IMG/VR virus record: IMGVR_UViG_3300003086_000041
Span: 1 to 41,586 of that record
Length of the DNA: 41,586 nucleotides
Direction: 5' to 3' (one strand)
DNA from: a virus
Lineage: Duplodnaviria > Caudoviricetes
The number at the start of each line of letters is the position of its first letter. Position 1 is the stretch's first letter. Under the pieces are notes generated by a model that was not told where the DNA came from, ran no database searches, and saw only the letters and a list, made by a program, of their open reading frames with translations. A program made the translations under genes and the position numbers. Positions 5,362 to 24,565 of the stretch are shown piece after piece.

Positions 5362-5949
5362 GTGGCAACTTTAATAACAGTGGCAGACTACAAATCATAT
5401 GCTGGCATTACTAGTACTAAGTTTGACACACAGATCTCTAATATAGTTACTGCAATAAGTGCAATTATTAAAACATATTGTAACCGTACTTTCGTAGATT
5501 ACGCTAGTACAGATAAAACCGAGTATTTTAGTATCGCTAATGATGCTACCATATTTGTAGAAGAAATACCTATAATATCAGTAACATCACTAAAGGTACG
5601 ATTAAACCCTAGGGTCGCGTACACTACATTAGTAGAGAATACTGATTTTGTTGTGGAAGAGGGGCAAATTGTCCATATTGATCCAACTACTGGTGGAGCA
5701 TTAAAATTTCCACATGGACCACTAGCCGTAGAACTAAAGTATAAAGCTGGTTTTACGACAATACCTGGTGATTTAAAAATTGCTGCAATGGATATGGTTA
5801 CTTTCTATATGAAGAAGGAAGCAACACAAGAAGTAATGATGATGTCTAAGTCTCCTAGTAATATTAGTAGATCGGCTAATGATAAGCAGGTATCTAATTT
5901 CCCTCCACATATTTCACGTATACTAAATTATTATAGAACTATACTGTAA
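5362..5949 (+). CDS. Head completion / head-tail adaptor (T5 p144-like)
   Basis: GTG start after AAGGAG; LITVADYK, IKTYCNRTF, YKAGF..IPGDLKIA, FPPHISRILNYYR. Confidence 0.85.
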   Translation: MATLITVADYKSYAGITSTKFDTQISNIVTAISAIIKTYCNRTFVDYASTDKTEYFSIANDATIFVEEIPIISVTSLKVRLNPRVAYTTLVENTDFVVEEGQIVHIDPTTGGALKFPHGPLAVELKYKAGFTTIPGDLKIAAMDMVTFYMKKEATQEVMMMSKSPSNISRSANDKQVSNFPPHISRILNYYRTIL

Positions 5950-6245
5950 TGGCTGTAAAGGACCTCAAGAGGTTATTACTGAAGTACGAATCAAATTTAG
6001 CTAATAAAGCCAACTATAACGCGTCAAAATTAGCAAGAGTAAATACATACAATAATAGAGATTATGTAGTAGATTTAAGCAAGAAAACTATAATAAAAAA
6101 TACTAAAGATAATATTAGAGTAGCAGGTAGAGATGAACCTACTGCTGCAGAATTAGAGAATATTTGGGAAAGAACAATTGCTTCTATTAAAGCTGCAATA
6201 CCTCCCTTTGGTGGAACAGGAAATAAAAGTGTTGGTGGTGCTTAA
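5949..6245 (+). CDS. Hypothetical; probably the N-terminal part of the tail-completion gene
   Basis: TAATG coupling to the upstream gene; the reading frame continues in +1 near 6240. Confidence 0.6.
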   Translation: MAVKDLKRLLLKYESNLANKANYNASKLARVNTYNNRDYVVDLSKKTIIKNTKDNIRVAGRDEPTAAELENIWERTIASIKAAIPPFGGTGNKSVGGA

Positions 6246-7425
6246 AGTTACCTGGAATTCTAGCAATACTATTATGTATATTAAGAATGTAAAGAATGAT
6301 CCATGGTCGGGGCAAAGTACCCATACATTCCTATTAAAGCTTAGGCAAAAGTTAGAAAAGGAAGTATGGGGCTTCAATGTAGGTAGTGTTGCTAATAAAA
6401 AAAGAGGTACCAGTACTACAGCAGGTGTAGATATTGGACATGTTGAGGACTTAATACTCGTACAATTAAAAGATACTCTATTAGGCAGTATTAATGATAT
6501 TATTAGAAGCTTTAAATCTACGAAAGCAGCTAGAGGTATAATTTTAGATGATATAGCAAAAGAGCTAAGAAGTGGAGTAGCTAGCGGAAGTATACCCTTT
6601 AATACATTTATTGAAGTAACTAAGAATATAACTAGTGAAGGCACAATTAAGATGGGTGTTGGAGTAGGTGCAGAAGATGTGCCCTTAAAAACTTTTGAAA
6701 AGTGGATTGAAGTTCAGTTTGAGGCTACTTGGCAGAACCAAGGACAAAAGTCTAAGGATGTACAAGCTGCTGCTAAACTATTCAAAAAGACCATATTACC
6801 TGAGATATTAAAAAGTTTAAATAAGTTAGTAGGTCAAAATGATTGGCCCGGGCAGAAAGCAAGTCCTGCAATTAATGAAATGATTGATACTATGATAGAG
6901 AATTCTCTATTTAGTACTAAAAATGTTAATACTAGATTCGGCTCAAAAGCTAAGAGTAAAAAGAAAGCTGCAAAGCTAAAGTCTAAAGTAACTAAGGTTA
7001 AAAAGTATTTAAGAAAGAAACCTAAGAAACCACCTCCTAGTAAAGGAGATATAAGAAACTATATTCAAGACCCTAGAGGAAATTGGATTTCCCCTATAAG
7101 TCTTACAAGCTTAATAGATGGATTAGTAGGGTCACAAGTTGCAGCTAATATGGGTACTCCTGCTCTTAACTATCGTACAGGTAGATTTTCAGAGTCAGTA
7201 GAAGTACTTGATATAATGCCAGATACTGGCATTACTATTAGAGGACAAAGACAAGAACAAGTGACGGCATATTATACATATATGAAAAGACCGTACGAAA
7301 CTTTTGAAAGAAAAGACAAATGGGGTGAATTTAAAAACCCAAGAAGATTAATTGATAAGTCTATCCGTGAGATAGCTACAAAGTATATTAATGCGAGGTA
7401 TGACTTAAGGACGGTTAGATTATGA
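6178..7425 (+). CDS. Tail completion protein (T5 p143-like), start uncertain
   Basis: C-terminal MGTPALNYRTGRFSESV, YTYMKRPYETFE and NPRRLIDKSIREIA motifs; lies between adaptor and terminator. Confidence 0.75.
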   Translation: MLLLKLQYLPLVEQEIKVLVVLKVTWNSSNTIMYIKNVKNDPWSGQSTHTFLLKLRQKLEKEVWGFNVGSVANKKRGTSTTAGVDIGHVEDLILVQLKDTLLGSINDIIRSFKSTKAARGIILDDIAKELRSGVASGSIPFNTFIEVTKNITSEGTIKMGVGVGAEDVPLKTFEKWIEVQFEATWQNQGQKSKDVQAAAKLFKKTILPEILKSLNKLVGQNDWPGQKASPAINEMIDTMIENSLFSTKNVNTRFGSKAKSKKKAAKLKSKVTKVKKYLRKKPKKPPPSKGDIRNYIQDPRGNWISPISLTSLIDGLVGSQVAANMGTPALNYRTGRFSESVEVLDIMPDTGITIRGQRQEQVTAYYTYMKRPYETFERKDKWGEFKNPRRLIDKSIREIATKYINARYDLRTVRL

Positions 7426-10116: not shown

Positions 10117-13100
10117 ATGGCCAGTAAGAGTAAAAACATACAAATTATTGTAACTAGTAAGGGATTAAAAGAGGTAAAAAGAGACCTCGTATCTATCCGA
10201 AAACTTACTGGCCCGGGTAAAAATAATAATATTAAGATTAACCTCAGTGTTAATCAAAAATTCTTTCAAACGTCATTACAAAAGGCGTTTAAGAATATCG
10301 CCACTAAGAAACTTAATCTTAGTATAAATCAAGCATTCTTCAATAAATCTTTAGCAAATGCAATTGCTCAGGCAGAACGCCGTGGCATTAGATTAACCGC
10401 AAATGTTATTGGAACAGGAAGAGCAAGACCAGAACAAAAAAGAGCCGAGCGTATATCTGGAGGAGCAGCTACGTCTAATATAGTTGGTGGTGTTGCTTAC
10501 CAAAGATCATCTATGATAGCTACTCAGGCTGCTACTAAGGCTCAAATAGCGGGTAACCAACTTGTTGCGAAGAACGTTCATTCAAATAAAATAGTTGCTA
10601 AGCAAGCTGAACAGGGTCGTCAAGCGACACTTAAACAGGCGTCACATTCAAAGTTTGCTAATAAACAGTTACAGAATCTAAATAGAGCTATATCTTTATT
10701 AAATAAAACTATGGAACGAGTAATTCGTTCTATGTTACAGATAGAGTTAGTAATAAAATCTAATAGTGGTGTAAAAACTGGAAACACAGAACGGCAGATA
10801 AATAGAATTAAAAGCCAAGCTAAGGTTACTCGACGAAATTTAGCATCAGCTACAGCTTTAGAGCCTTATGACCCTAGTAGTACTAATAGAAGATATGCAG
10901 GTGGCGCACCAAAACATCCATCTGTATATAGACAGGATCAAGAAGCCTATAGAATCAGAAAACAGTTAGATGCAGGGCAAGCATCTGGACAAAGATTTAC
11001 TACACTGACAGGCGGAAGACAAGTCGATACCAGAGAGGCTATTAGAGCAACTCACGAAGCAAGAAGGCTAAAGTTTGATACTGGTCAACTCGATAAAAAA
11101 GGTCAAAAGATATATCGTAACGCTGATACCTCTGAGGTTAACGCAGAACAAGTTAGAGTGGTTAAAAAGTTAGTTGCTTCTCAGAGAACTTTACAACATC
11201 ATGTAGATAAACAGAGCAAAGAATATATCGCTAGTAAACCCCCTATATACACTTCAGAAGTTATGGGGGGTAGAACATCGGGAGCGAGAGGAAGCCGTCC
11301 AGGCGGGTCTGGCGGGTCTGGCGGGTCTGGTGGCGGAGGTGGTGGTCGTGGTCGTAGTATAACTGGTGCTGATCCATATAAAAGAAATAGAGGTATCATA
11401 GGTACTAAAGGCGGGGGCGGAGACTTTTCGCATATGGCATCTGGAATGGGTGGCTTTGTTGGTATGTATGCTGAAGTTGCAGCTAAGACTTTCGCCTTAG
11501 GAGCCGCATTTAGAGCTCTAAAAGAAGCTGCTGATTTTGGTGTGCTTATTGATGGTATGAAAGCCTATGAGGCAGCATCTGGAGCATCTTTATTATCTGT
11601 AGCCAAAAGAGTACAAGAAATTACTCAACACACTATAGGACTTAAGCAGGCATCACAAGGTGTAACTATGTCTATAGCTGCTGGGTTTGACTCAACTCAA
11701 ATTGAAGCTATGGCAACAGCAGCCAAGAATGCAGGACTAGCCCTAGGGCGAGACTTGGGTGATGCTTTCGACAGAATTACCAAAGGTGTAACAAAAGCAG
11801 AGCCAGAATTATTAGACGAATTAGGAATTATATTACGTCTTGAAACTGCCTCTAAAAAATATGCTAAAACAATAAGAAATTTAGACGGTAGTATAGGTAA
11901 AAATGTTAAAGAACTAACTACTTATGAGAAGCAACAAGCTGTATTAAACGAAGTTATAACTCAAGCTGAAAATAAGTTTGGCTTATTAGGCAAGCAGATG
12001 GAAGGTAAAGCTAACTCTTTATCAGCAATATCAGCTGCTTTAACAGATACAGCTCTTAAAGCGGGTAATTTCGCGCTAGACTTTGATATAATATTTGGAA
12101 TAGCTAGTATTAAAGATGTAGTAAAATTCTTTTCTGAGAATGCTACAGCAGTAATCGCAGCTTTTTCTGGGTTAGCTATATTTTTACTAAAGAATATGAT
12201 ACCCCAGGTAGGAAAATTTACTAATAAGTATTCTGATGCTGCAAGTAGGTTTGCAGCAGATTCTCATGCTATGGCAGTATCAGCTAAAAATAGTGGAACT
12301 ACATTCCAAAGCTTTGCTAAACAAATGAATACCATGGGAACAGGTGCTGCATTCTACTCTACTATAGAGGATATGGGTGTTAATGTAACAAACGCAGAAG
12401 GTCTCATAGTAAATAAGTTTGATAATATTACTAATGCGTACAGAAATCTATTAAGTGAAGGGGGCGTGAATAATGCCCAAGCGATGCGCCACCTAACGGA
12501 TGTAGCTGGCGGAGATGTTGCAAATATGTTGGTAGATTCTGCAGATAAGGTCAACATGTCTAAACTTGACCTAGCTAATGATCCATTTGCGGGTACTAGG
12601 GATGTGCAGAAGGCAATGAGTTCTTCCCTAATGAGTAATGTCGATGGATTAATAGGGGATATGGAAACTACCGGCAGAAGAGTCGGCACCCTTATTGATG
12701 AAGGCATGGGCATTGAGATGGATGTAACCAGACGAGGACTAAAAGATCTAAGGATGCAAATGCTTAGAACGGTAGATCCGAAAGCATATGCTAAGCAGTT
12801 AGCAGAGATGGAAAGTGCTGTAACTGGATCATCATCAAGCTGGGCCAGAAATATGGAAGGCAAAGTTAGATCCCGTATGGCTTTTAATGCCAAAAAAGCG
12901 GGTTTACGAGCAGCAGGTAAATTTGAAGTTCAACAAGCATTTCAACATGAAGGAACTTCTGCAGGGTGGCAAGAAGCAAGTTACCAAGCTAAAAGGTATG
13001 GCAAAGAGATGGATAAGCTATATAAGGCTGAAGGCAAAAAAATGAACTTGTATCATAAAGCCCTAAAGTCTATGGGCAAAGCGAATATTAGGTTCGGCTC

Positions 13101-16100
13101 ACAAATTGCTTCTCTTGGTCGTGGTATAATGTCAGGGGGTATGAAAGCTATGCAAGCTGTAGCTATATACACCATGCTTGAAGCAGCTGTAAAAGGTATA
13201 TCTAAAGCATTCGGTTTCACTACTGACGTTATTAGTAAGGCTATTTCAGGTGCTAATGCTTTTGGGGAAGAATTAGACGCTCAACAAGAAAAATGGATAG
13301 GGTACTCTAATCAGTTAAATCTATTCACTAATAGTTTAGAGGGAATAGGTAAAGCAGCTGGTCAAGAAGCTAGTAGTTTAGAGAGTTTTTCTAACTCATT
13401 AACTACTATGTCTGTTAAGTGGGGTCAGGCAATTGATAAAATGACAGCTGGTGATAAAGTAGGCGAAGTCTTCTCAGAGATGGTATTCTGGTCAGATAGT
13501 ATGTCAGAGTCAATGGATGAGCAAACTAAAAAGTTTATTGATACGGTAAAAACTTCTGGGCACTTAAAAGCAATTGCGTCAGCATTGAGTATAGATATAG
13601 ATAGTATAACACTTTTTGATTCTAAAGGTAGACTAACTAAGGATCTGGCCAGATTTCAAGAAGAGACAAAAAAGGTCTCTGCAAGCTCTAGAAATTTAGA
13701 ATCGAACATTAAAGACTTAGCTCTAGCATTTCAAGGCTTAGGAGACGCTCAGTCTGAGTTTGCAAAAGGATTGCTAACATCTACTAAGTTTGATACTTTA
13801 GTAGATCAGTCAAAAGGGTTGAAAAAAACTTTTGAGGATACATTCTATAATGAACAATCAATAATGGCCTTTGAAGGCACATTAGATAGAGCCGTAGAAG
13901 CAGTAAAAGAATTTAAAGATACTTTAGGAAATCTTAGTTTTGAGATTGATCTAGTAAAAGTTTCTCCTAGTACTGGTAAGGATATTATAGGGTTATTAGG
14001 AAAAGATTTAGAACGAGTTACAGAGTTACAGAAACAGTTGCCGTCGTTTTCGGAAGGTATATTTGCCCCTAATGAATCTTTTGTTAAGACTAAAGCAATA
14101 AATCAGGAAATTCATGAAGTACTGTCAAAAGCTAATGTACAGAGGCAACAAGAGGGAGTAGCTAGCCAGCTAAAAGATTCATTATTACCTCAACTTAAGA
14201 GAACTGCCTTTAAACATATACCTGAGGAAGAATGGAATAAGGTATCTAAAGCTATCCTTGCAAGTATTCATACTAAAATTGCCGATGCTGCAGCTGCTCA
14301 AAGAGCAGAGCAGTTTGCCAATATGCAGTCTGGCAATACTATGAGTGGGATCGCCAGTCTTGAGTCGTTATCAAGTGATGCTTTAGAACTATTAGTAAAA
14401 GATGCTGTAGGTAAACAAATTACTCCTGATATGATTAAGCAGGGTATGTGGAAAAGTGCTATAGCAAGCCAAATTGAGGGTCTGAGCATAGAGCTACAAT
14501 CAGCGCTGGAGACACTATTACTAGAATCTGGTAGATTTCTTAAAGATGAAAAAGAAGGGTTCCTATCAAGAATACATGAAACTGTAGATAGTAAACTATC
14601 ATTTACGGAAGCAAAGGATACAATTAGAGAGGCTATTGTACTTTATGATGACTTTGTAAAAAATGCCCAAAGACAATTTAGATACTTACAGGGTGAAATA
14701 GATCTCATGGCTTCTGCTATGACAAGGTTAAAGGGTACTGGAACATCTACAGATTTAATCAAATCTTTAAATATAGAAAGTAAAATACTAGATAGTAAGC
14801 AAGCTCAGTTCCGTCTAACAATTAAAACTCTAAGATTGAGTAAACGTACAAAAGAAAATCAAGAAGCTATTGCTCAAGAACAAAAGAAAATCGCAGACTT
14901 AGAGCTTAATAGGTTATCTGAAGCTCAAATAATACATCAAGGTATTACTACAGAAATTAAGTATCAGTATAGCATATACGAAAAGAATCTTGGGCTGATT
15001 ACTGATATGGTAACGGCGCTAGAGTCTATAGGTAGCATAAATAAGTCTCAAGTAGCACATCTAAACTTTGTGTCTACTAAACAAACATCCATTAATTCTG
15101 CAATTAAGGACTGGTTAGATATACATACTAAGTATCAGAAAGATTTGAAATCTCCTGAAGCTGATAAAGTAAAGTTACTTGAAGCTTACACATCTGCTAA
15201 TAAGATAGTAGGGGAGCGACTTACTAATATTGTTAAAATTGCAAAGATAGAGAGGGATTCTTCTTACTTAGATCATAAATTAGACCTATACAATAAAATG
15301 GTAGATAGAGCTAGTGCTCTATTAGATATACAAAAAGAACTATCAGGTGTGCATGATGCCAATGCTAGTACTACCGAATCTCTAGCAATTATTAGTGCTA
15401 GGGAATCAGACCTTGCAAAAGAAAGACTTGATTCTATGAGGGCAACTACTGAGCTAACTGAGAGGCATACACTTGCTCTACAGAATGCTGTGGGTAGTAC
15501 TACAGACTTAACTAAATGGTATAAATTAGAGAAAGCTCATATGGCTTTCATGCTAACTACTAGAGAGGAACTTATAAGTCTACAGGCATTAGCAGCACTA
15601 AATACCCTTAAAGAATCTTCTTCTCTTGAGAGTATAAATAGGCACTTAGTTGCTCAAGAAGAACTAAATAATGCTAAACTTACTAGTAGTCTTCATGTTA
15701 ATAATATTAAAGCTAGAGAAAATAGATTATCTAATATTAAGAAGAAGTTTGATATTAAGGCTTTACAGCATGAACATAATGTACTAAAAATTAGAGATAA
15801 ACTAGAAAATCTAGAATTAACATCTTGGGAAAGACAGAATCTAATTAGAGATATTGATTCTGAAATCCTAGAGATGGAGAAAGAAAAGGTAGAAGTTTTA
15901 GAGGAATACGTAGAGGGGCTAAAAGCTGCTCACGAAGCAAAAAAGAGAATAGGCGAAGCATCTTTAGATGATGAGCTATACTATAGAATTAAAGAAATGC
16001 AAGAGGCTATGCCTAGTGCTATCGATTCAGCTGCCAATGTAATGATAGGGTCTATTAATACTGCTGTAGATATGATGGCAGAAAATATTAAGGAAGGCGA

Positions 16101-17004
16101 AGGAGCCTTCGGTGCGGGCGGATTTGAAAATTTTGCGGCTAAGCAATGGCGAGCTGCTGGAGATACACTTATAGACTCTGCAGCTGAGAAAATGAAAGTG
16201 GCTTCAGCCAAGTTAATGTTAGGCTCTACTTACATTACTCCAGAAGAAAAAGCAGTACAAGCACTAAAGAAACAAGACATTGGAAATAACTATTTATTAG
16301 ATATTTCTGCGACTCTAAAAGCTATCAGAGATAGAAGGGTTGACATATCTAATCAGACAGGCACTACTATTAATGGTGTAGAGGATTTTTACGCAAAAAA
16401 TAAGAATAAGAAAGTATTTGACCAATTCGTGCCAACAACTAAGTCTGAATTTTTAACAAATGCTATATTAGCGGCCGAAACTACAGGCGATAGAATTGCT
16501 GATACTTTAGAAAAGCTAGTTGATATTATGGATACTATGAGATTAAATAAATCTCTAGATAATACTCCAAGCTGGTTAGGTGTTGCAGACAACCTTATGT
16601 CAAATGAGGATCGCGCCTTAGCAGTAGCTCTAGATGTACAAGCAGAATCAATTTTTAAAGCACAAGATAATTTCAATGCTCAGTGGGATGCGATGGAGCA
16701 CCGTCTAAATACTACTCCAAGCTGGTTAGGTGAGCCAACAAACAATCTTATGTCAAATGAGGCGCGTGCTGCAGCAGTAGCAGCTGATAAAGCAGCGAAA
16801 GTATCAGCAGCTAGAGCAGCGGAAGAAGAATATTTAGATCTTGCGATGTTCCAAGCTGAATTCGACCAAGAACAGATGGAGGCTCAGGCTAATATAGAGC
16901 GATTCATAGAGTCTCTAGGTTACTCAATGGATAGAGTTATAAGCTTGGGTAATAAAGGGAAAACAGCTACAGAAGTAATAACTAATTATACAGATAAGTT
17001 ATAG
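10117..17004 (+). CDS. Tape measure protein, N-terminal part (T5 pb2-like)
   Basis: LGRDLGDAFDRITKGVTKAEPELLDELGIILRL resembles pb2; long helical Ala/Lys/Glu-rich sequence; hydrophobic segment AVIAAFSGLAIFLL. Confidence 0.88.
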   Translation: MASKSKNIQIIVTSKGLKEVKRDLVSIRKLTGPGKNNNIKINLSVNQKFFQTSLQKAFKNIATKKLNLSINQAFFNKSLANAIAQAERRGIRLTANVIGTGRARPEQKRAERISGGAATSNIVGGVAYQRSSMIATQAATKAQIAGNQLVAKNVHSNKIVAKQAEQGRQATLKQASHSKFANKQLQNLNRAISLLNKTMERVIRSMLQIELVIKSNSGVKTGNTERQINRIKSQAKVTRRNLASATALEPYDPSSTNRRYAGGAPKHPSVYRQDQEAYRIRKQLDAGQASGQRFTTLTGGRQVDTREAIRATHEARRLKFDTGQLDKKGQKIYRNADTSEVNAEQVRVVKKLVASQRTLQHHVDKQSKEYIASKPPIYTSEVMGGRTSGARGSRPGGSGGSGGSGGGGGGRGRSITGADPYKRNRGIIGTKGGGGDFSHMASGMGGFVGMYAEVAAKTFALGAAFRALKEAADFGVLIDGMKAYEAASGASLLSVAKRVQEITQHTIGLKQASQGVTMSIAAGFDSTQIEAMATAAKNAGLALGRDLGDAFDRITKGVTKAEPELLDELGIILRLETASKKYAKTIRNLDGSIGKNVKELTTYEKQQAVLNEVITQAENKFGLLGKQMEGKANSLSAISAALTDTALKAGNFALDFDIIFGIASIKDVVKFFSENATAVIAAFSGLAIFLLKNMIPQVGKFTNKYSDAASRFAADSHAMAVSAKNSGTTFQSFAKQMNTMGTGAAFYSTIEDMGVNVTNAEGLIVNKFDNITNAYRNLLSEGGVNNAQAMRHLTDVAGGDVANMLVDSADKVNMSKLDLANDPFAGTRDVQKAMSSSLMSNVDGLIGDMETTGRRVGTLIDEGMGIEMDVTRRGLKDLRMQMLRTVDPKAYAKQLAEMESAVTGSSSSWARNMEGKVRSRMAFNAKKAGLRAAGKFEVQQAFQHEGTSAGWQEASYQAKRYGKEMDKLYKAEGKKMNLYHKALKSMGKANIRFGSQIASLGRGIMSGGMKAMQAVAIYTMLEAAVKGISKAFGFTTDVISKAISGANAFGEELDAQQEKWIGYSNQLNLFTNSLEGIGKAAGQEASSLESFSNSLTTMSVKWGQAIDKMTAGDKVGEVFSEMVFWSDSMSESMDEQTKKFIDTVKTSGHLKAIASALSIDIDSITLFDSKGRLTKDLARFQEETKKVSASSRNLESNIKDLALAFQGLGDAQSEFAKGLLTSTKFDTLVDQSKGLKKTFEDTFYNEQSIMAFEGTLDRAVEAVKEFKDTLGNLSFEIDLVKVSPSTGKDIIGLLGKDLERVTELQKQLPSFSEGIFAPNESFVKTKAINQEIHEVLSKANVQRQQEGVASQLKDSLLPQLKRTAFKHIPEEEWNKVSKAILASIHTKIADAAAAQRAEQFANMQSGNTMSGIASLESLSSDALELLVKDAVGKQITPDMIKQGMWKSAIASQIEGLSIELQSALETLLLESGRFLKDEKEGFLSRIHETVDSKLSFTEAKDTIREAIVLYDDFVKNAQRQFRYLQGEIDLMASAMTRLKGTGTSTDLIKSLNIESKILDSKQAQFRLTIKTLRLSKRTKENQEAIAQEQKKIADLELNRLSEAQIIHQGITTEIKYQYSIYEKNLGLITDMVTALESIGSINKSQVAHLNFVSTKQTSINSAIKDWLDIHTKYQKDLKSPEADKVKLLEAYTSANKIVGERLTNIVKIAKIERDSSYLDHKLDLYNKMVDRASALLDIQKELSGVHDANASTTESLAIISARESDLAKERLDSMRATTELTERHTLALQNAVGSTTDLTKWYKLEKAHMAFMLTTREELISLQALAALNTLKESSSLESINRHLVAQEELNNAKLTSSLHVNNIKARENRLSNIKKKFDIKALQHEHNVLKIRDKLENLELTSWERQNLIRDIDSEILEMEKEKVEVLEEYVEGLKAAHEAKKRIGEASLDDELYYRIKEMQEAMPSAIDSAANVMIGSINTAVDMMAENIKEGEGAFGAGGFENFAAKQWRAAGDTLIDSAAEKMKVASAKLMLGSTYITPEEKAVQALKKQDIGNNYLLDISATLKAIRDRRVDISNQTGTTINGVEDFYAKNKNKKVFDQFVPTTKSEFLTNAILAAETTGDRIADTLEKLVDIMDTMRLNKSLDNTPSWLGVADNLMSNEDRALAVALDVQAESIFKAQDNFNAQWDAMEHRLNTTPSWLGEPTNNLMSNEARAAAVAADKAAKVSAARAAEEEYLDLAMFQAEFDQEQMEAQANIERFIESLGYSMDRVISLGNKGKTATEVITNYTDKL
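11302..11352 (+). repeat. GGCGGGTCT x3 / poly-Gly linker
   Basis: Tandem 9-mer encoding [15 protein letters not shown]. Confidence 0.85.
16561..16782 (+). repeat. Imperfect direct repeat TPSWLG..NLMSNE.RA.AVA (two copies, 150 nt apart)
   Basis: TACTCCAAGCTGGTTAGGTG at 16563 and 16713; CTTATGTCAAATGAGG in both copies. Confidence 0.85.
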
Positions 17005-17074: not shown

Positions 17075-20000
17075 ATGGGTAGTGGCTTTATGGGCTTCAA
17101 TCCTATGAAGACTGTGGCCCATAGTATGTTGACTAGTGAAATGGGTCAATACAATGACCCTAATATAGTAAATTCGGGTATGCTTGCTAATACTAGAGCA
17201 ATGATGGCGGATAAGATGTCTGGACAGGTATCCCCAGATAAGATAGCATATATTTTAGATAGGTTCGATAGATTCGCAGCACAATTCGATAATTACAAAG
17301 CAGCTGTAGATAATTATACAGAGAAGTTACTGGCACCAACAGTCGTTATACCATCTATACCCTTAGAAAAGCCCAAGTATAACGCTCTGCCTAGTGCATC
17401 TGATCTTAACCATAATCCTACTTGGCAAGACAGAGATGATAACAATAGAGGCGCAGAATTTTATGCACATGGTGGGCATGTGTCAGGATTAGGCGGCCCT
17501 ACAGATGATTCAGTAGCCGCATGGCTATCTAATGGAGAGTTTGTTGTTAATGCAGACGCCGCTCAAAGAAATAGAGCTTTCTTAAATATTATTAATGAAG
17601 GTGGTAAGATACCTGGATTCTATGAAGGAACCAGACCAGATAGTTATTTAGGTGGAGGTATTTTTGATGCTGTAGACCCTCAAGTAACTAGAGTATTGAG
17701 AGAAGTAGCCGGGCATGTGCTTACTATAAGTACCTTATTAAAAGACCAGGTAGGCTACTCTGTTCGCGCAATTGATGATTTATCTAGAGAATTAGTATTC
17801 GATTTAGTATCTGTTATAGAATTCGAATTAGGAATCCCTATGGGAGAATTCATGAGTTTCATCTCTACAGAGATGTCTCCTACATTAGATAAATTAAATA
17901 TTACACTAGACACTATTAATACTGAGTTTACTAGTGCGTCTAAGACTTATGACACAATCACTACTCCAAGTGAGTGGTTCTCTCCAAGTGAGTGGTTCTC
18001 TCCTAAAGCAGGCGACCTACCTCATAATAAATTTGCAGCAGGTGGTCGTATTTCAGGCCCAGGGGGCCCTAAAGAGGATAAGATCCCTGCCTGGTTATCT
18101 AATGGAGAGTATGTTATTAATGCAGCCTCTACTAAAAAGTATGGACCATTAGTAAAATCCATCAATGACGATACTCTGAATCTAGCTGCTGGTGGAAGAT
18201 CAGATAAGAGTAAATATGCTAAATTTGCAGAGGGAGGCATTGCTAAATTTGCAGATGGTGGTTCATTTGATTGGATGAAATCTCTTCAAAAAACAAACGT
18301 AAATGATGCTGTTCAAAGACTAGCAGATAAAATGAATATAAATAATGTCATAAAGAATGATGACGTTATGCGAAATACTAGTGGAAAGATGCACAAAGCT
18401 GGTCCAAACTTTAAAACTTTTAAAGGGGCAAGTTGGTGGGTAAACAAAGAAGGACAAAGAGTTCGTAATGTAGGGAAGCCATACGGTAATTGGCAAGAGG
18501 GTATGAAGTGGAAAGGTGGAAGTGCAGGAGCTCATAGATTTGGGCCTTTCAGTACAGGCAACCCTTACGCGGGTACTCCTCCAAACCTTAATATGCATGA
18601 AGTCGGTACTGCCACTAATAGAAATAAGCCAGTATCAATACTAAATCAATATGACAAAAAACCTGATGGGACCGCTAAATATGCCAAAGGGTTTAAAAGT
18701 GTATCTGACGAAAAGAAAGCAGCACTAATAATATACGATAAGCTAATGGCAGGAAAGGACCCATATAGAGGTAAGTCCCTTATGGTTCCAAACCCTGTAT
18801 CACATCAAGGTATTGTAGCAAAAAGTGCCAAAGGAGTACAGTTTGCCAAAGGTTTAGCGCAGGAAAGGAGAATTTGGACTAAAGGATTTGCTAAAAAAGC
18901 AGCTGGATCTTTAGTTGGTTTACCTCTTGCGGGAGGACTTGGCATAGCTGAGCTTATAAACATACTAGTAGGTAACCCATTCGTGGATGAGCCTAGAAGT
19001 GTTATGCAAGGATTTGCAGGTGGCGGACTAATATCTGACTTCTTCCTTGGTAAACAAGCGAATGCTATTAATATAACACCTGGTTGGGGACCATTCGGTG
19101 AACGATTAATGCCAGGTGGCGTTGGACGTGGTATAATGCCGAGTGGTGGGGGTGGAAGGTCTTCAGGTATTCCCCCATTACCAAACGGTAGAATTACTAT
19201 CGCCCATAGAGGGAATATGACTAGGGAAGAGTACAAAACCCTCAGACAACAAGTAGACTCTAGGAACGGCGTATTTGTACCAGGACTTCAACCATGGGAT
19301 ATGGCTCAGAGACGGTCGGCTGCTAGATTGGATATGTGGAAATCGATACACAGCCATGGATCATTTGCCAATGGAGGTCCAGTAGGTAACGCGGAAAGAT
19401 TCGTTAGAGGCATGGATTGGAATATTATGGGGTGGGAGGACGATGTCGTACCTAAAGATCCAATGGGGTTACATAAATATGGTTTCTCTTCTAAATCTAG
19501 AGGTAAGAATGATCTTAATGATAGACTTAAGCTATCTTTCGAAGGGCTAGATCCAGATGCTATGGCTAATAAAGCTCCTTTCTTCTTTCTAGGAAATCCA
19601 GGACAAGACCCTATATTCGCACTAAGAGGGCGACTGGCAGGGGGTAATATCCGTGGAGTTGCAGAACAGGGTTGGGATGAAGATGGTAACTGGGCTAAGA
19701 TAGCTACATATTTTTCAAGTATAGAAGGTGATATGGTGCGTACTATGGCGCATGAAACTGGTCATTTTCTCCCTTCGGCCCAACTTGGCTGGAAAGAGGT
19801 ATTTGGGGATAAAATAGATATATCTTGGTTCAAGCATTTAGCAACAGATAAAAATGATAAAGGTGGAACTAAAGAAGATAGAAAAATGAACCATGCGTTT
19901 ACTTACCGTGAAGACCAGATAGGTAGGGAACTTATTGCACGTACTAGAGAAAGAATGGCAGTATCCCCTATGGGAACAAGCATTAAAGATCTGGTTCCTG

Positions 20001-21487
20001 AGTGGTTAAAAGAATACTATACTCAAGAAATGTGGGAGGCTCTAACTGATGCTTCCATTCCTAAGAAGGCAGACTATGATATGGAAAGAATGTTTGAAAC
20101 TCTTTCTGGTAAAGGTCGTAATGGAGATACAGAATTAGCTCATGTTAATCCTTTTGAGTCTAGTGTACTAAGAGGTTTGGGAGGATCTGGAAGTGTCAAT
20201 CCTACCACAGGTCTGAGAGAATATGCTCAGCACAAACTTGCAACCGTTAAAACAAAGAGTGTAGTACAAGAAGATCTTTTGACAAAGATTAGTAAGATGA
20301 CTGAAGAACAAGCTGAGACCCTTAAAAAGCAACTTGAGTACTTTGAAAATTCATTTAACTTCCAGAAAGGTGAATTAAATGAAGAGCAGAAGAACTGGAA
20401 GTTATTCAATGACTCTGACGCTGTTAAATCATTTGAGGGCTCAACAGGTATAAGTGCTCAAGCTTTAGTACAAAGCTTTGGTGCTTCTTTTGAGATGGAA
20501 CTAGGAAGTTTATTTAAAACGGGTAAGTTTGACGTTAAGAGTATGCTTTCAACGTTTGCAACTAGTGTCAGTGTAGCCTTTATGAACTCAGCAACAGCAA
20601 TGGCAGTAGACTATATAGATAGTTTAGGAAGGGATTTATTCTCTTCTTTAGCCGGAGACGGAAAATCTGAATCTAGTAAGGTTGTAGATGATTTTGGCAC
20701 TAGTGTAAAGAAGTCTGTATCTGATACATTTGATAAAGAAACTACTGGTACCGGAGGAATATGGCAGAGTATATCCAATTTTGGTACTAAGTTATTTGAC
20801 GGTATAGGAAGTATATTTAATGGTGAGGGAGGAGACGGCGGACTTATGGGTATGCTAAAAACTGGTGGAAGCTGGCTTATGGATCTGTTTAGTGGTAGCG
20901 GTGACTGGTTATCAAGTTTATTCAGTGGTTTCACCACCACAGCTTTAGCTAAAGGTGGGTACGCAGAATTTGCAGCAGGTGGAGCAGCTAAACAAGGATA
21001 TGCAAGATTCTCTGATGGCGGTGCGATACACGGTGCAGGTGGACCAACAGCAGATGCAATTCCTGCTTGGCTATCTAATGGTGAGTATGTTATTAATGCA
21101 GCTTCTACATCACGATACAGACCTATAATAGAAGCCATCAATGCTGATGAGTTAGCTAAAGGCGGGTTCGCCAGATTTGCTAGAGGTGGATTCCCAGAGT
21201 ATACTAAGTATGCTGCGGGTGGAATTAGTGGTACTATGACTCCTGGTCCAGATATGGCAGCTATTAAGCCTATCCCTCAAGGCTCAATGGGTAAAACTGA
21301 AGTTAGTAATAATGTTAGTGTAAATGTTAATGTAACAAATGGTGGTGCTTCTGTAGATGTTGATTCTAGCTCAGGTAATGAGTTAACTCAGGAACAATCT
21401 AAAGCACTTGGTTTAATGATTGGACAGAAGATTCAGGAGCAGCTACTTGATGAGCAAAGACCTGGTGGAATTTTAAGTGAGTATTAA
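17075..21487 (+). CDS. Tape measure protein, C-terminal part, with repeated AxGG/WLSNGE modules
   Basis: Three GG...GPxxDxxxAWLSNGE(Y/F)VxNA modules and terminal EQRPGGIL, typical of lambda gpH-like C-termini. No RBS before 17075, and the frame is open from 16982. Confidence 0.8.
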   Translation: MGSGFMGFNPMKTVAHSMLTSEMGQYNDPNIVNSGMLANTRAMMADKMSGQVSPDKIAYILDRFDRFAAQFDNYKAAVDNYTEKLLAPTVVIPSIPLEKPKYNALPSASDLNHNPTWQDRDDNNRGAEFYAHGGHVSGLGGPTDDSVAAWLSNGEFVVNADAAQRNRAFLNIINEGGKIPGFYEGTRPDSYLGGGIFDAVDPQVTRVLREVAGHVLTISTLLKDQVGYSVRAIDDLSRELVFDLVSVIEFELGIPMGEFMSFISTEMSPTLDKLNITLDTINTEFTSASKTYDTITTPSEWFSPSEWFSPKAGDLPHNKFAAGGRISGPGGPKEDKIPAWLSNGEYVINAASTKKYGPLVKSINDDTLNLAAGGRSDKSKYAKFAEGGIAKFADGGSFDWMKSLQKTNVNDAVQRLADKMNINNVIKNDDVMRNTSGKMHKAGPNFKTFKGASWWVNKEGQRVRNVGKPYGNWQEGMKWKGGSAGAHRFGPFSTGNPYAGTPPNLNMHEVGTATNRNKPVSILNQYDKKPDGTAKYAKGFKSVSDEKKAALIIYDKLMAGKDPYRGKSLMVPNPVSHQGIVAKSAKGVQFAKGLAQERRIWTKGFAKKAAGSLVGLPLAGGLGIAELINILVGNPFVDEPRSVMQGFAGGGLISDFFLGKQANAINITPGWGPFGERLMPGGVGRGIMPSGGGGRSSGIPPLPNGRITIAHRGNMTREEYKTLRQQVDSRNGVFVPGLQPWDMAQRRSAARLDMWKSIHSHGSFANGGPVGNAERFVRGMDWNIMGWEDDVVPKDPMGLHKYGFSSKSRGKNDLNDRLKLSFEGLDPDAMANKAPFFFLGNPGQDPIFALRGRLAGGNIRGVAEQGWDEDGNWAKIATYFSSIEGDMVRTMAHETGHFLPSAQLGWKEVFGDKIDISWFKHLATDKNDKGGTKEDRKMNHAFTYREDQIGRELIARTRERMAVSPMGTSIKDLVPEWLKEYYTQEMWEALTDASIPKKADYDMERMFETLSGKGRNGDTELAHVNPFESSVLRGLGGSGSVNPTTGLREYAQHKLATVKTKSVVQEDLLTKISKMTEEQAETLKKQLEYFENSFNFQKGELNEEQKNWKLFNDSDAVKSFEGSTGISAQALVQSFGASFEMELGSLFKTGKFDVKSMLSTFATSVSVAFMNSATAMAVDYIDSLGRDLFSSLAGDGKSESSKVVDDFGTSVKKSVSDTFDKETTGTGGIWQSISNFGTKLFDGIGSIFNGEGGDGGLMGMLKTGGSWLMDLFSGSGDWLSSLFSGFTTTALAKGGYAEFAAGGAAKQGYARFSDGGAIHGAGGPTADAIPAWLSNGEYVINAASTSRYRPIIEAINADELAKGGFARFARGGFPEYTKYAAGGISGTMTPGPDMAAIKPIPQGSMGKTEVSNNVSVNVNVTNGGASVDVDSSSGNELTQEQSKALGLMIGQKIQEQLLDEQRPGGILSEY
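17964..18003 (+). repeat. 18-bp tandem duplication (PSEWFS x2)
   Basis: CTCCAAGTGAGTGGTTCT twice, followed by CTCC. Confidence 0.9.
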
Positions 21488-21489
21488 TT

Positions 21490-21840
21490 ATGGCATATGA
21501 TTTTAATACAGTAGTAGGAATTGTTCCTGCTAAAGGGTTTAAAGAGCAGGTTAAGGCTACTGCTTTAAAAGCTAGATATGGTGATGGATATATGCAAAGG
21601 GCTGCAGAAGGTATTAATAACTTTACTAGCGTTTTTGCCCTATCTTTTACAAATAGAACTTCAGCTGAAGCTCAAACTATTATAGATTTCTTAGAAGCTA
21701 GAAGAGGTTTTGAAAAGTTTACTTGGACTCCCCCATATAAAACAGTAGCAATTTCAGTATACTGTGAACAGTGGGCTGAGCAGTATGTTGCTCATGGTGC
21801 TATAACAGTTACTGCTACATTTGTGAGGGTATTTGAGTGA
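21490..21840 (+). CDS. Distal tail protein, lambda gpM-like
   Basis: YGDGYMQRAAEGIN, FLEARRG...FTWTPP, ATFVRVFE. Confidence 0.92.
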   Translation: MAYDFNTVVGIVPAKGFKEQVKATALKARYGDGYMQRAAEGINNFTSVFALSFTNRTSAEAQTIIDFLEARRGFEKFTWTPPYKTVAISVYCEQWAEQYVAHGAITVTATFVRVFE

Positions 21841-22661
21841 GTAGTGGGTATAAGTCCATTATAGAGGATATATACGGACTAGAGCCAGGAGCTATAGTAG
21901 AGCTTTTTGAACTTGATCTTACAACTATACCTAATTGGGTAACTCCTGCTAGTGGTGTTGAAGTACTACGTTTTCATGCAGGTACTGCAAATTATAGTGT
22001 GCATAAAAATCAAGAAATAATGTGGCAAGATAAAATCTATTACCCTTATCCTATAGAAGTATCGGGATTCGAATTTAGCGGACAAGGGGCACTACCTACT
22101 CCTTCTTTAAAAGTGGCTAATTTAACCGGAGTACTGACAACACTTATACTAGACCACGAAGATTTAGTATGGGCAAAATTAACTAGAAAAAGAACTTTTG
22201 CAAAATATTTAGATTCTGTTTGTTATGATGTTATTAATTCAACCCCTATAGAGGGTATTACTAGCTATCTAGGATGTACAGCTATTTCTGGGGGAGTTTG
22301 GCATCCTAATAGTAGCATGGATGTAAATGCTCATTTTCCTGATGATATATTCTACATAGATAGAAAGAAAACAGAAAATAGAGTGATGATAGAATTTGTA
22401 CTGTCTACTGCATTTGATGTGCATGGTACTAAACTACCTCGTAGACCTATGATTTCTAATACATGTACTTGGAAGTATAAGAGCGGGCAAGGTTGTACTT
22501 GGGTGGATAATTCTACTAAAAGGTATAGTGTTGATGATATTGCAGTAGCTAGTGAAGCAGATGACCACTGTGGTAAAAGAGTAAAGAGTTGTGAGTTGCG
22601 TTTTGGTGAGAGTAACGAGTTACCTTATGGAGGTTTCCCTGGATCTAATTTAGGATTTTAA
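21837..22661 (+). CDS. Tail tip protein, lambda gpL-like (Fe-S type Cys cluster)
   Basis: VELFELD, LRFHAG, YPIEVSGFE, RKRTFAKYLD, CTWKY....C, CGKRVKSC..RFG, PYGGFPG. Confidence 0.93.
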   Translation: MSSGYKSIIEDIYGLEPGAIVELFELDLTTIPNWVTPASGVEVLRFHAGTANYSVHKNQEIMWQDKIYYPYPIEVSGFEFSGQGALPTPSLKVANLTGVLTTLILDHEDLVWAKLTRKRTFAKYLDSVCYDVINSTPIEGITSYLGCTAISGGVWHPNSSMDVNAHFPDDIFYIDRKKTENRVMIEFVLSTAFDVHGTKLPRRPMISNTCTWKYKSGQGCTWVDNSTKRYSVDDIAVASEADDHCGKRVKSCELRFGESNELPYGGFPGSNLGF

Positions 22662-22662
22662 A

Positions 22663-23376
22663 ATGGAAGAAGAGATGAGAAAGCACACTAAGATTGAATA
22701 TCCTAGTGAGGCATGTGGGTTAGTAGTAGAAGTTAATGGTACTGATAGGTATATTCCTTGTAAGAATATAGCAGACCGTACTAACGAAGAATTTATAATT
22801 GATCCTATAGACTATGCGGATGCAGAGGACTTAGGTAAAATTAAAGCAGTATTTCATTCTCATCCAGATTGGACTGAGAAGCCTAGCGAAGGAGATTTAG
22901 TAGCTTGTGAGGAAACCAAGATACCTTGGATTATACTCAGTTGGCCAGGTAATAAGTTTTATAGGTTCGCTCCAAAAGGATATAGTGTCGATTTATTAGG
23001 TAGACCGTTCTACTACGGTATACTAGATTGTTGCACCTTATGGAGGGATATTTATAAAAGAGAGCTTAATATAGATTTTCAATGTATTGATAAAAGTGGT
23101 AGATACCCAGAGTATAACTGGTGGGAAGAGGATAAAGATTATTATATAGAGAACTTCGAATCTCAAGGATTCGTAAAATTAATTGATACGAAGCCTAAGA
23201 AGTATGATGTATTTCTTATTAAACTAGCTTCTAGGGTTGCCAATCACGCTGCAGTATATATGGGAGGAGGTATTATTATCCACCATGTACTAGGTAAATT
23301 ATCTACAAAAGAAATGTATGGTGGATATTGGCAAAAACATACAGTACACCACTTAAGGCATGAATCACTATGTTAA
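22663..23376 (+). CDS. Tail assembly protein, lambda gpK-like (JAB/MPN + NlpC/P60)
   Basis: EACG...HSHP.....PSEGD (JAB); LLGRPF..GILDC, NHAAVY, IIHH (NlpC/P60). Confidence 0.93.
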   Translation: MEEEMRKHTKIEYPSEACGLVVEVNGTDRYIPCKNIADRTNEEFIIDPIDYADAEDLGKIKAVFHSHPDWTEKPSEGDLVACEETKIPWIILSWPGNKFYRFAPKGYSVDLLGRPFYYGILDCCTLWRDIYKRELNIDFQCIDKSGRYPEYNWWEEDKDYYIENFESQGFVKLIDTKPKKYDVFLIKLASRVANHAAVYMGGGIIIHHVLGKLSTKEMYGGYWQKHTVHHLRHESLC

Positions 23377-23975
23377 CGGATGTTAAACTATACGGAGAAC
23401 TAAAAGATAAGTATGGTGCAGAATTTACTTTCGATGTAAATTCTGCTAGAGAAGTTATATCTGCCTTAATAGCTAACTTTAAGACATTTCAAGATACTCT
23501 TAGTATAGAAGGTAACCAATATGTCCTAGTATATGATAAACAAGAATTGGCTATAGATGATATTATGCTTAAAACTTTTGATAAAAGGAAAGTTTTAAAG
23601 ATAATACCAGTAGTATCTGGAGCAAAGTCTAAATGGGCTACTATTATAATAGGAATTGTATTAATATATGTAGCAGTTATGGTACCTGGAGGTATGGCTT
23701 CTATGGGTGAATTAATGGCAGGTACTGCAACTGGTGCTCAATATGCTGCAGCTGTTGCATTTAATATTGGTACTTCAATGGTAACGGGCGGTATTGCACA
23801 AATTTTAGCTGGAGACCCTGGTAGTCCTACTAGCGTAGCAAAATCTAAGAACTATTTTTTTGATGGCCCAGTAAATACAACAAGGCAAGGAGCACCCGTT
23901 CCTATTGCTTACGGGCAACTAATGGTAGGTGGAGCAGTAATTAATGCACAAATAAGGGCAGAGGAAGACCAATGA
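23370..23975 (+). CDS. Tail assembly protein, lambda gpI-like, copy 1
   Basis: VKLYGEL...YG ubiquitin-like N-terminus ending IIPVVSGA, hydrophobic helices, NYFFDGPVNTTRQGAPVPIAYG. Confidence 0.9.
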   Translation: MLTDVKLYGELKDKYGAEFTFDVNSAREVISALIANFKTFQDTLSIEGNQYVLVYDKQELAIDDIMLKTFDKRKVLKIIPVVSGAKSKWATIIIGIVLIYVAVMVPGGMASMGELMAGTATGAQYAAAVAFNIGTSMVTGGIAQILAGDPGSPTSVAKSKNYFFDGPVNTTRQGAPVPIAYGQLMVGGAVINAQIRAEEDQ

Positions 23976-24565
23976 GTGAAGTTGTACTATATGGAGAATT
24001 AAGAGAGAAGTTTGGCAAAAGTTTCTCTTTAGAGGTTCATAGTGCAGCAGAAGCAGTTCGTGCTTTATGTGCTGTTTTACCTGGATTTAAGGATTTTGTA
24101 GTTACTTCTGAAGATAGAAGTATTGGGTATCGAGTACTAGTAGATGAAATAGATAGAGGATTAGATGAACTACATAATCCTGTAGGCAGTGAAAAAATAA
24201 AAATAATACCGGCTATATTAGGATCTAAAAGTAAGGCAACTAAAATAATTCTTGGAGCTGTTATGATATATGCGGGTGTTCAGATGGGTGGTATGACCGA
24301 CGTATCAGGTGGTATTGCTAATATGACTGCTACACAAATAGCAGGTAAACTGCTGATAAATTTTGGAATGTCAATGGTATTTTCAGGCATTGCTGAATAC
24401 TTGGCTCCAGACCCCAAAGCAGCTGTAGAGGCTCCAGAGAATTACTTCTTTGATGGGCCAGTAAACACACAAAGACAAGGTGTCCCAATACCAATAGCCT
24501 ACGGGCTTGTAAGAGTAGGTGGGTCAGTAATTAATGCGTATATAGTAGCACAGGATAAAGATTAA
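23972..24565 (+). CDS. Tail assembly protein, lambda gpI-like, copy 2
   Basis: VVLYGELREKFG, AAEAVRAL, IIPAILGS, NYFFDGPVNTQRQGVPIPIAYG. Confidence 0.9.
   Translation: MSEVVLYGELREKFGKSFSLEVHSAAEAVRALCAVLPGFKDFVVTSEDRSIGYRVLVDEIDRGLDELHNPVGSEKIKIIPAILGSKSKATKIILGAVMIYAGVQMGGMTDVSGGIANMTATQIAGKLLINFGMSMVFSGIAEYLAPDPKAAVEAPENYFFDGPVNTQRQGVPIPIAYGLVRVGGSVINAYIVAQDKD

Follow-up and report, generated by a model that had tools for sequence, protein, structure and literature searches.

A tape measure gene with 13 AxGG motifs

The window, by which we mean the whole stretch of 41,586 nucleotides analysed, carries the tape measure gene of an uncultured marine phage, split here into two open reading frames (ORFs; 10117-17004 and 17075-21487). 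The gene is placed as in siphophages: it is very long, follows the tail tube gene and two chaperone genes, and precedes the distal tail genes. Tape measure families were matched at both ends (PHROG 3779 for the N-terminal part; 25241, 3547, 24 and others for the C-terminal part). The split results from a 29-base gap at 17001-17004, which shifts the frame. The 29 extra letters were found in 8/8 sequencing runs, from 5 studies, and the ORF junction is in frame in 4/4 near-identical loci (L002-L005), giving a full protein of ~3,799 amino acids (aa). Because the gap is filled in all eight runs, we treat the product as a single tape measure of ~3,799 residues; the same runs and loci rule out both a programmed frameshift at 17004/17075 and a pair of distinct genes. 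The 29-base loss may be an assembly error or a rare mutant, two cases that are indistinguishable since contigs drop rare variants. The N-terminal part has a helix-forming composition and one loose motif match, and its early end is caused solely by the gap. The features of the locus are compiled in Table 1.

Table 1. Positions of the tape measure features and neighbouring tail genes in the window
Feature	Position	Strand	Remarks
Tape measure, N-terminal ~2,295 residues	10117..17004	+	PHROG 3779 tape measure, E 5.8e-42; continuous with next ORF in L002-L005
Site of 29-base gap	17001..17004	+	29 letters more in 8/8 runs; L003 reads through
Tape measure, C-terminal 1,470 residues	17075..21487	+	All 13 motifs; PHROG tape-measure matches
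Motifs 1-7 (starts)	YAHGG 17462, FAAGG 18032, LAAGG 18182, FAEGG 18224, FADGG 18248, FAGGG 19013, FANGG 19364	+	
Motifs 8-13 (starts)	LAKGG 20945, FAAGG 20969, FSDGG 21008, LAKGG 21152, FARGG 21176, YAAGG 21209	+	
Module 1 (YAHGG + GGP..D..AWLSNGE.V.NA; degenerate FYEGT at close)	17462..17626	+	HMM match aa 130-184
Segment S, acidic, lying between the first two modules	17627..18031	+	Shared with P0001 (83%) and P0002 (45%)
Module 2 (FAAGG...) and cluster LAAGG, FAEGG, FADGG; upstream fence of variable row	18032..18262	+	Module kept in five-relative alignment
Cassette A, 250 aa, basic, hydrophobic helix at end (about 18914-18970)	18263..19012	+	Only P0022 matched, 31% over 150 aa
Cassette B, basic and rich in Gly/Pro, 112 aa, with its FAGGG motif	19013..19363	+	38% over 99 aa to P0003 cassette
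Cassette C, a candidate zinc metallopeptidase of ~237 aa, with its FANGG motif	19364..20089	+	P0001 match, 73% over 244 aa
GRNGDTELAH...GLREY, the fourth conserved block, fencing the variable row on its downstream side	about 20081..20230	+	Overlooked in the first-pass annotation
Conserved helical part, then length-variable Gly-rich, weakly hydrophobic stretch	20231..20944	+	
Cluster LAKGG, FAAGG, module 3 (FSDGG...), LAKGG, FARGG, YAAGG	20945..21223	+	Mosaic changeover in or just before FAAGG 20969
Last 92 residues, conserved tip-facing piece	21209..21487	+	Size equals T5 pb2C
gpK-like JAB + NlpC/P60 protein	22663..23376	+	E...HSH...S..D motif intact
Two tandem gpI-like genes	23370..24565	+	PHROG 32 for both

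The 1,470-aa ORF contains 13 (F/Y/L)(A/S)xGG motifs, while shuffled sequences gave a mean of 0.49 and a maximum of 6, and none of 20,000 shuffles reached 13. A looser form of this motif occurred at most once per ORF in the other 31 window ORFs scanned. The first-pass annotation of this DNA had described about a dozen such motifs, three GGP...LSNGE modules, and three segments (A, B and C) in between. Its motifs recur in the order in which it gave them, the modules were confirmed (aa 130-184, 319-369 and 1312-1362 of ORF 17075-21487), and the segments agree in coordinates and character, A being basic with a hydrophobic end, B Gly/Pro-rich and C bearing HExxH. Its remark that the module is usually single near a tape measure end stands only as a tendency: a pattern search of 122 homologues, a set biased by a query with three modules, found one module in 66, 2-3 in 26 and none in 30, and the module occurs twice in Douge gp16 (PDB 8ZDO). 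By analogy with the lambda gpHC-gpI pair, we infer that the last 92 residues bind the tail tip.

The GRNGD block lacks here the AxGG motif that precedes it in most relatives. It is present also in podovirus-like ejection-region proteins, and in L018, a phage in which stabilization and DNA-transfer genes are present, a putative ejection protein combines the motif with both block types. A common family for the GGP module and the GRNGD block, suggested by eye, drew no support (hhalign probability 2% local and 0.1% global; reversed control, 0.6%).

Content of the cassettes

Cassette A has a pI of 10.1 and a hydrophobic 19-mer near its end, a type of terminal helix common to other cassettes of relatives; its first ~60 codons stand after a different motif in contigs of three studies. 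Cassette B has a pI of 11.4 and a Gly+Pro content of 25.6%, versus 7.0% in the ruler body. Cassette C encodes HETGH at 19751-19765, with HExxH kept in the window and P0001 (two sequences only). It carries no AxGG at its downstream end, where it joins the GRNGD block directly, and would therefore remain fused to ~280 further residues. The structure model of C (pLDDT 35.7) was unusable for fold assignment, a comparison with the PDB gave no match, and its Atlas neighbours were unnamed viral clusters, that at rank 26 having PF07737 on 17% of its members. A, B and C had no match in Pfam, PHROGs or phage GenBank records, and nothing in NCBIfam beyond one match for B at E 0.07; the earlier suggestion of anti-defence or envelope-degrading effectors thus drew no direct backing from these databases. 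A family search with segment S also gave no match, and the sole match of a metagenome scan was the window's own record.

Two cassettes of relatives, both absent from the window, were characterized further. Cassette D was modelled at pLDDT 71 as a compact alpha/beta domain of strand-strand-strand-helix-strand-helix order. Many acetyltransferases aligned to this model at Z 4.3-5.4, on a level with unrelated folds (best Z 6.0), and Foldseek returned no match at E <= 0.001; on the model, cassette D is possibly GNAT-like. A cassette of L036 may be ClpP-like, matching NCBIfam NF045542 over 64 residues (E 7.3e-5; 22.8 bits versus a cut-off of 120) and a PHROG head maturation protease family (E 0.003).

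Exchange of cassettes among relatives

The proposal that variable segments lie between conserved flanks was borne out in six relatives (P0001, P0002, P0003, P0004, P0022 and P0023), which, at the same fences (module 2 on one side, the GRNGD block on the other), carry differing cassette strings. None of the six has A, B and C together, and C, B and part of A were each found again in one different relative; further different cassettes were read by eye in the L036 group and in L048. In near-identical pairs, entire units differ: L036 and L037 are set apart by one 540-base unit (YADGG plus cargo), and the L036 and L043 sequences part 10 bases into the motif. Contigs from other studies have either A replaced (joint 18234-18989) or A+B replaced (joint 18186-19381). 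Compared with L002, the window shows 0 differences over 17075-20979, then 29 over 20980-21446, and homology to L007 begins in the 20945..21223 motif cluster. A motif is present at nearly every cassette boundary in relatives; in P0002 and P0004 two cassettes are joined directly, without an intervening motif, and of 10 alignment ends 5 fell outside motifs and 5 at motifs, the count being 3/8 once the L005 deletion, a possible assembly error, is omitted. On these alignments, cassettes are shown to be gained, lost and reordered between fixed flanks, with several changeovers at motifs.

The motifs had also been taken for recombination points. This holds in part only: changeovers often lie at motifs, but the copies are not conserved as DNA. 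When the motif copies of the gene are compared with one another, third codon positions show 0.24-0.50 identity, versus 0.85-1.0 for positions one and two of the Ala/Gly codons. The constraint is therefore on the peptide and not on the DNA, and a reading of AxGG as a base-level repeat serving recombination finds no support in these third positions. The motifs that open the three cassettes share exact runs of at most 4-11 bases with other motifs (one overlapping-neighbour comparison excepted). Incoming cassettes would survive selection only if in frame between intact motifs, and changeovers would therefore fall at motifs without a dedicated recombinase.

Such turnover might mean that the cassettes are near-neutral filler, accumulated by recombination and adjusting tail length, with the motifs as duplicated remnants of the terminal module. 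The want of a family match for A, B and C is in keeping with this, as are the single match among 1.84 billion representatives searched with A+B+C and a crude count, of unchecked alignment register, of 47 changed versus 17 silent codons in a comparison of the window with L006 that covered a portion of C plus the block after it. We consider filler very unlikely all the same: the same cassettes recur, reordered, at 60-74% identity in phages with an overall ruler likeness of just 33-50%, catalytic-looking motifs are kept, AxGG is conserved with free wobble, and cassette D of a relative models as a compact domain, as given above.

Evidence bearing on cleavage

In T5 pb2, a cut was measured at R1127|AEGG, directly before AEGG, giving pb2* and a 92-residue tip piece, pb2C, that is kept in the virion and proposed to be the first ejected (Linares et al. 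2023, PMC10038345; PMC11937500; PMC11937520). The site is disputed, an earlier study having put the cut at V1148; the masses that we computed for R1127 are 121,680 and 9,702, versus measured values of 121,683 and 9,702. This cut stands before one of just two AxGG in 1,219 residues, RAxGG being invariant in 5/5 aligned T5-like proteins. T5 leaves ALGG at 139 uncut, and AxGG is therefore by itself insufficient for cutting. YAAGG in our protein lies 92 residues from the end, just as R|AEGG does in T5, and as the last motif it leaves a piece of 91-92 residues. The residue before AxGG is Arg at the T5 cut versus F/Y/L in this protein, and K/R in 28/120 module-leading motifs of homologues. Because no significant similarity to the modules of our protein emerged for the T5 post-cut block (best match E 0.86), the link with T5 consists of four residues and their position; the module profile also gave no match to T5, and a weak one to lambda (E 0.007). 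For lambda gpH, site and catalysis of the cut are described as unknown in the available account (PMC12617516); a cut before A734 of FATGG computes to 79.6 + 12.5 kDa, versus literature values of ~78 + ~14 kDa. By analogy with T5 pb2 (R1127|AEGG), we regard cutting of the present protein as likely.

The motif could instead be a structural joint or loading signal in a protein cut once or never, whose cassettes are ejected tethered, as domains of a trans-envelope channel. The T5 and lambda rulers are each cut a single time, a hydrophobic helix with the potential for membrane anchoring closes many of the cassettes, a separating motif is missing in C and in certain fused cassettes, and the tight motif clusters resemble repeats of a structural turn. 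The main text on Douge (PMC13033339) is moreover silent on cleavage or proteolysis despite the two-module ruler, although this is silence and not a test. Against such a joint speak the sole precisely measured cut, directly before an AxGG that is invariant in T5-like phages, and the presence of the motif at nearly every cassette boundary of relatives; we find it rather unlikely, if deserving of consideration. As a separate observation, cutting throughout the clusters, at a spacing of 8-14 residues, would yield tiny peptides of no obvious use, which counts against cutting.

If the motifs are cut, the pieces might still be freed in the producing cell during assembly, to act late or be discarded, and not be carried by the virion. 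Of the six gpHC copies in lambda, three may be lost, the stretch beyond the first motif is 1,341 residues long, and folded cassettes would presumably need unfolding to fit the tail tube. However, T5 pb2C and lambda gpHC remain in the particle, and a late-acting protein would gain little from fusion to the ruler; we hold release in the producer to be improbable.

Both candidate proteases of the first-pass annotation, cassette C and gpK, fared poorly. As a general processing protease, C is too sporadic, being present in only 1/6 relatives compared by BLAST. A gpK-like gene was found in 11/12 relative loci tested, the twelfth ending before the gpK position. A search of the 22-kb T5 tail region gave no gpK match, and since T5 makes the same kind of cut, gpK is unlikely to be the protease. 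JAB enzymes cleave after Gly-Gly, whereas the T5 cut precedes AxGG. The gpK-like protein more likely acts on the gpI proteins than on the tape measure; in the F-pyocin, the gpI homologue loses its N-terminal region to an unknown protease.

Discussion

The reading that we favour, and to which we give about an even chance, is that AxGG motifs fence cassettes that vary among relatives, and that the protein is cut before the motif alanine during tail assembly, its pieces being held in the tail and ejected ahead of the DNA. Cutting would probably be confined to some of the motifs, with those at the head of a module the likeliest, and the protease would not be a variable cassette. As with T5 pb2C and lambda gpHC, the individual cassette pieces would remain inside the tail tube and enter the host before the DNA; with the ruler C-terminus bound to the tip, the cassette pieces would therefore leave first. 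Enzyme-like cassettes (HExxH in C; possibly ClpP-like and possibly GNAT-like ones in relatives) and fast turnover would fit a host-directed role.

The phage shares with T5 its head and tail gene order. T5 pb2, in contrast, has 1,219 residues, one cut, one piece and a pb9/pb3 tip, as against 3,799 residues, 13 motifs and variable cassettes here, with a tip of the lambda type (M/L/K/I/I/J). In lambda itself, FATGG (733) and YATGG (778) of gpH bracket a short block, the one weakly matched by the module profile; gpH (processed to gpH* + gpHC) differs in having one block, no cargo and, in the available account (PMC12617516), no known enzyme activity. Mycobacteriophage tape measures similarly have ruler-embedded enzyme motifs, a role in stationary-phase infection and suggested processing (TM4 mt3, PMC1796659; Douge, PMC13033339), but the available text of these reports describes neither mapped cut sites nor motif-fenced cassette exchange. 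The contractile injection system effectors Sle1 and Tme likewise join a ruler-like coiled coil to a variable, exchangeable C-terminal functional domain (PMC13277306); these, however, belong to bacterial nanomachines and have one domain per protein, and cleavage is not mentioned in the main text of that report.

More tentatively, and as a possibility that we hold to be somewhat doubtful, the tape measure of many tailed phages may be a self-loading polyprotein magazine, in which one conserved protease would cut before AxGG, the pieces would be held in the tail and fired before the DNA, and populations would reshuffle them like a polymorphic effector locus. Podovirus-like ejection proteins would use the same code, and lambda gpH would be cut between F733 and A734. 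The motif thus gives a one-residue prediction for a cut that is unmapped according to the available account (PMC12617516). Should cutting and injection of the cassettes occur, tape measure genes would hide pre-made host-directed proteins that are invisible to gene callers, and the motif would mark their excision points. Even without cutting, the contigs of several studies reveal strain-level exchange of cassettes within one essential gene.

Tape measure gene and its motifs

The window record is linear, 41,586 bases long and estimated 35% complete, and the public runs covering it best are labelled hydrothermal vent metagenome. It holds a tailed-phage structural region, running from terminase, portal and a fused protease-capsid gene through T5-like connector and tail tube genes and two tail chaperones to the tape measure, which is followed by lambda-type tip genes (M, L, K, two I, J) and then by fibre genes. 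In two related loci (L025, L032) the gpL region between gpM and gpK spans ~2.3-2.8 kb vs 0.8 kb, which suggests an inserted element, for example an intein or intron.

As given, the window splits the tape measure into two ORFs. Aligned contigs from all 8 runs (5 studies) carry 29 additional bases at 17001-17004, in three of the 8 as a diverged version, and the junction is in frame in the near-identical loci L002-L005. The tape measure is one gene, not two; the joined protein has 3,799 residues, with the first motif at about residue 2,459, and annotation of the record would give two false genes owing to the 29-base gap.

The first-pass annotation had described 13 AxGG-type motifs, (F/Y/L)(A/S)xGG, and three copies of a GGP...LSNGE module near the C-terminus, and all of them were recovered (see table of features). 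Thirteen motifs were never reached in 20,000 shuffles (mean 0.49, maximum 6), and none of the 31 other window ORFs scanned has more than one loose match. The DNA of the three modules is 69-74% alike, and the inter-motif segments, or cassettes, contain 14.6-25.6% Gly+Pro vs 7.0% in the body of the protein. The idea that the motif is a DNA recombination repeat is only partly supported, since among the 13 copies third codon positions are identical at 0.24-0.50, the peptide being conserved instead (first two bases of Ala/Gly codons, 0.85-1.0); judged by codon positions, the motif is a peptide signal. In 120 module-leading motifs of the homologue set the preceding residue was F (37), K (21), Y (18), L (15), R (7) or another (22), and the constant part is, by this count, AxGG itself.

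Features of the window
Feature	Position	Remark
Overlapping ORFs	5949-7425	98 + 415 aa, vs a single tail completion gene in T5; possibly another frameshift in the record
Duplication in tape measure	16554-16781	150-base period (TPSWLG...NLMSNE); region replaced in relatives
ORF with the 13 motifs	17075-21487	Modules 1-3 at residues 130-184, 319-369, 1312-1362
Exact tandem in tape measure	17964-17999	18 bases (PSEWFS)
Cassette A	18263-19012	
Cassette B	19028-19363	
Cassette C	from 19379	
GRNGD block	about 20081-20230	GRNGDTELAH...GLREY
Two tandem gpI-like genes	23370-24565	Two separate best matches in L019, L023; both queries lead to one place in L025, L032, L036, L038
Gly-rich protein	38912-39772	Thrombospondin type 1 domain (Pfam E 1.3e-9), unusual for a phage
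Gly-rich paralogue	40140-41201	Shares its N-terminus with 38912-39772

A fourth conserved block, GRNGD, absent from the first-pass annotation, ends the variable row in all close relatives read. AxGG precedes it in most of these; in the window and the related protein P0001 it is missing, and C is therefore fused to the downstream part. Kinship of this block with the GGP module was tested and is not supported, their profiles failing to align. In phage Venkman the block starts a small protein. Between them, proteins at L017:6944-7852 and L018:6533-8812, in podovirus-like ejection regions, carry AxGG motifs, a GGP-type module and the GRNGD block; the latter locus, of phage DSL-LC04, encodes a 759-residue protein with the block, FAMGG, FANGG, LAKGG and the module, labelled tape measure in GenBank and lying among stabilization and DNA-transfer genes, neighbours from which we infer a podovirus-like ejection protein.

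Cassette exchange among relatives

The tape measures of six relatives were cut at the motifs and the pieces compared by BLAST. As the first-pass annotation had anticipated, variable segments lie between conserved flanks, A, B and C never occurring all together in any of the six.

Cassette strings flanked by module 2 and the GRNGD block
Tape measure	String
Window	A-B-C
P0001	74-residue piece, D, C
P0002, P0004	D+F fusion, G
P0003	69-residue piece, D, B homologue, F
P0023	D, F
P0022 (fragment)	A-like tail, two other pieces

Cassette C has its counterpart in P0001 (73% over 244 residues), B in P0003 (38% over 99) and A in P0022 (31% over 150); two further lineages, the L036 group and L048, carry other cassettes as judged by eye. 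L036 and L037 differ by a single 540-base unit, YADGG plus cargo, whose ends lie 25-33 bases ahead of motifs with 4 bases of microhomology. Likeness between L036 and L043 is 99.8% until 10 bases into FAKG, and beyond it the two are unrelated. The window and L002 are identical over 17075-20979 and show 29 differences over 20980-21446, beginning within FAAGG. Five of 10 distinct alignment ends in these genes fall within a motif (motifs being 3-10% of bases), or 3/8 on excluding two from one deletion, possibly an assembly error, and alignments tend to stop at shared motifs anyway. In contigs of three other studies, aligned at 85% likeness and perhaps from related phages, joints were seen at 18234-18989, replacing A (2 runs), and at 18186-19381, replacing both A and B (1 run); in 3 runs the start of A was placed behind a different motif. 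The D+F fusions have a joint without a motif, against a strict motif-boundary rule. The cassette architecture and cassette exchange are real.

On the tail-tip side, window 20980-22700 is ~6-10% different from L002, with identical sequence upstream; L001 has the window's own gpL, and two tip-region alleles co-occur in the same runs. The L036 and L038 tape measures are near-identical for 7,026 bases, after which the C-termini differ entirely; their tip genes differ as well.

Cassette functions

Searches of protein family databases and phage records gave no family match for A, B or C, and A+B+C against 1.84 billion representatives returned one match, P0022. HETGH is kept in both known C copies (window, P0001); as structure prediction of C gave no usable model and its Atlas neighbours are viral clusters without names, the candidate assignment as a zinc peptidase rests on this motif. 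Cassette D has a predicted fold with a GNAT-like order of elements and no clear match in structure searches, and one cassette of a relative (L036:6576-7397) is weakly ClpP-like, with no match in a PDB search. Many cassettes are basic, and a similar hydrophobic helix ends several. The proposed anti-defence or envelope-degrading roles are guesses.

Proposed cleavage at AxGG

Single tape measure cuts are already known for T5 and lambda. T5 pb2 is reported to be cut after R1127 (PMC10038345), which in the T5 record is an R followed by AEGG; masses computed for this cut are 121,680 and 9,702 vs 121,683 and 9,702 measured. RAxGG is invariant in 5/5 T5-like proteins aligned (T5 and four chosen for distance among 30 listed of 909 records). 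A rival group keeps V1148 as the site and points out that trypsin, too, would cut at R1127, to which the R1127 group replies that its measurements were made on whole, undigested tails. The other T5 AxGG, at 139, is uncut, and profile comparison gave no significant match between the block following the T5 cut and the modules of the window protein. For lambda gpH, a cut before A734 would give 79.6 + 12.5 kDa vs about 78 + 14 kDa reported. Passages of PMC10713586, PMC12724387 and PMC13033339 give no further cut site; also known are enzyme motifs embedded in the TM4 tape measure (PMC1796659) and tape measure-derived effectors with exchangeable domains (PMC13277306). Our literature search, with most subscription journals outside its coverage, turned up no account of tape measures with motif-fenced cassette rows and 0 papers joining 'AxGG' with 'tape measure'.

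Segment C, one of two processing proteases suggested by the first-pass annotation, was found in just 1/6 relatives and therefore cannot serve the group. The other, gpK, has an intact JAB motif and occurs in 11/12 relative loci tested, with no match in the T5 tail region; JAB enzymes cleave their substrates after Gly-Gly. The cut may instead come from a host enzyme or from self-cleavage at the modules; the title of a 1973 paper reportedly gives the host a part in cleaving T5 tail proteins. The gpI-type proteins would offer gpK an alternative substrate, an N-terminal region of such a protein being removed in F-pyocin (bioRxiv 10.64898/2026.02.24.707460). Cutting and injection of the cassettes would be the most likely reading of the row, a prospect that we judge to be about evenly balanced; the single measured site on which it rests is disputed and belongs to a distant phage.
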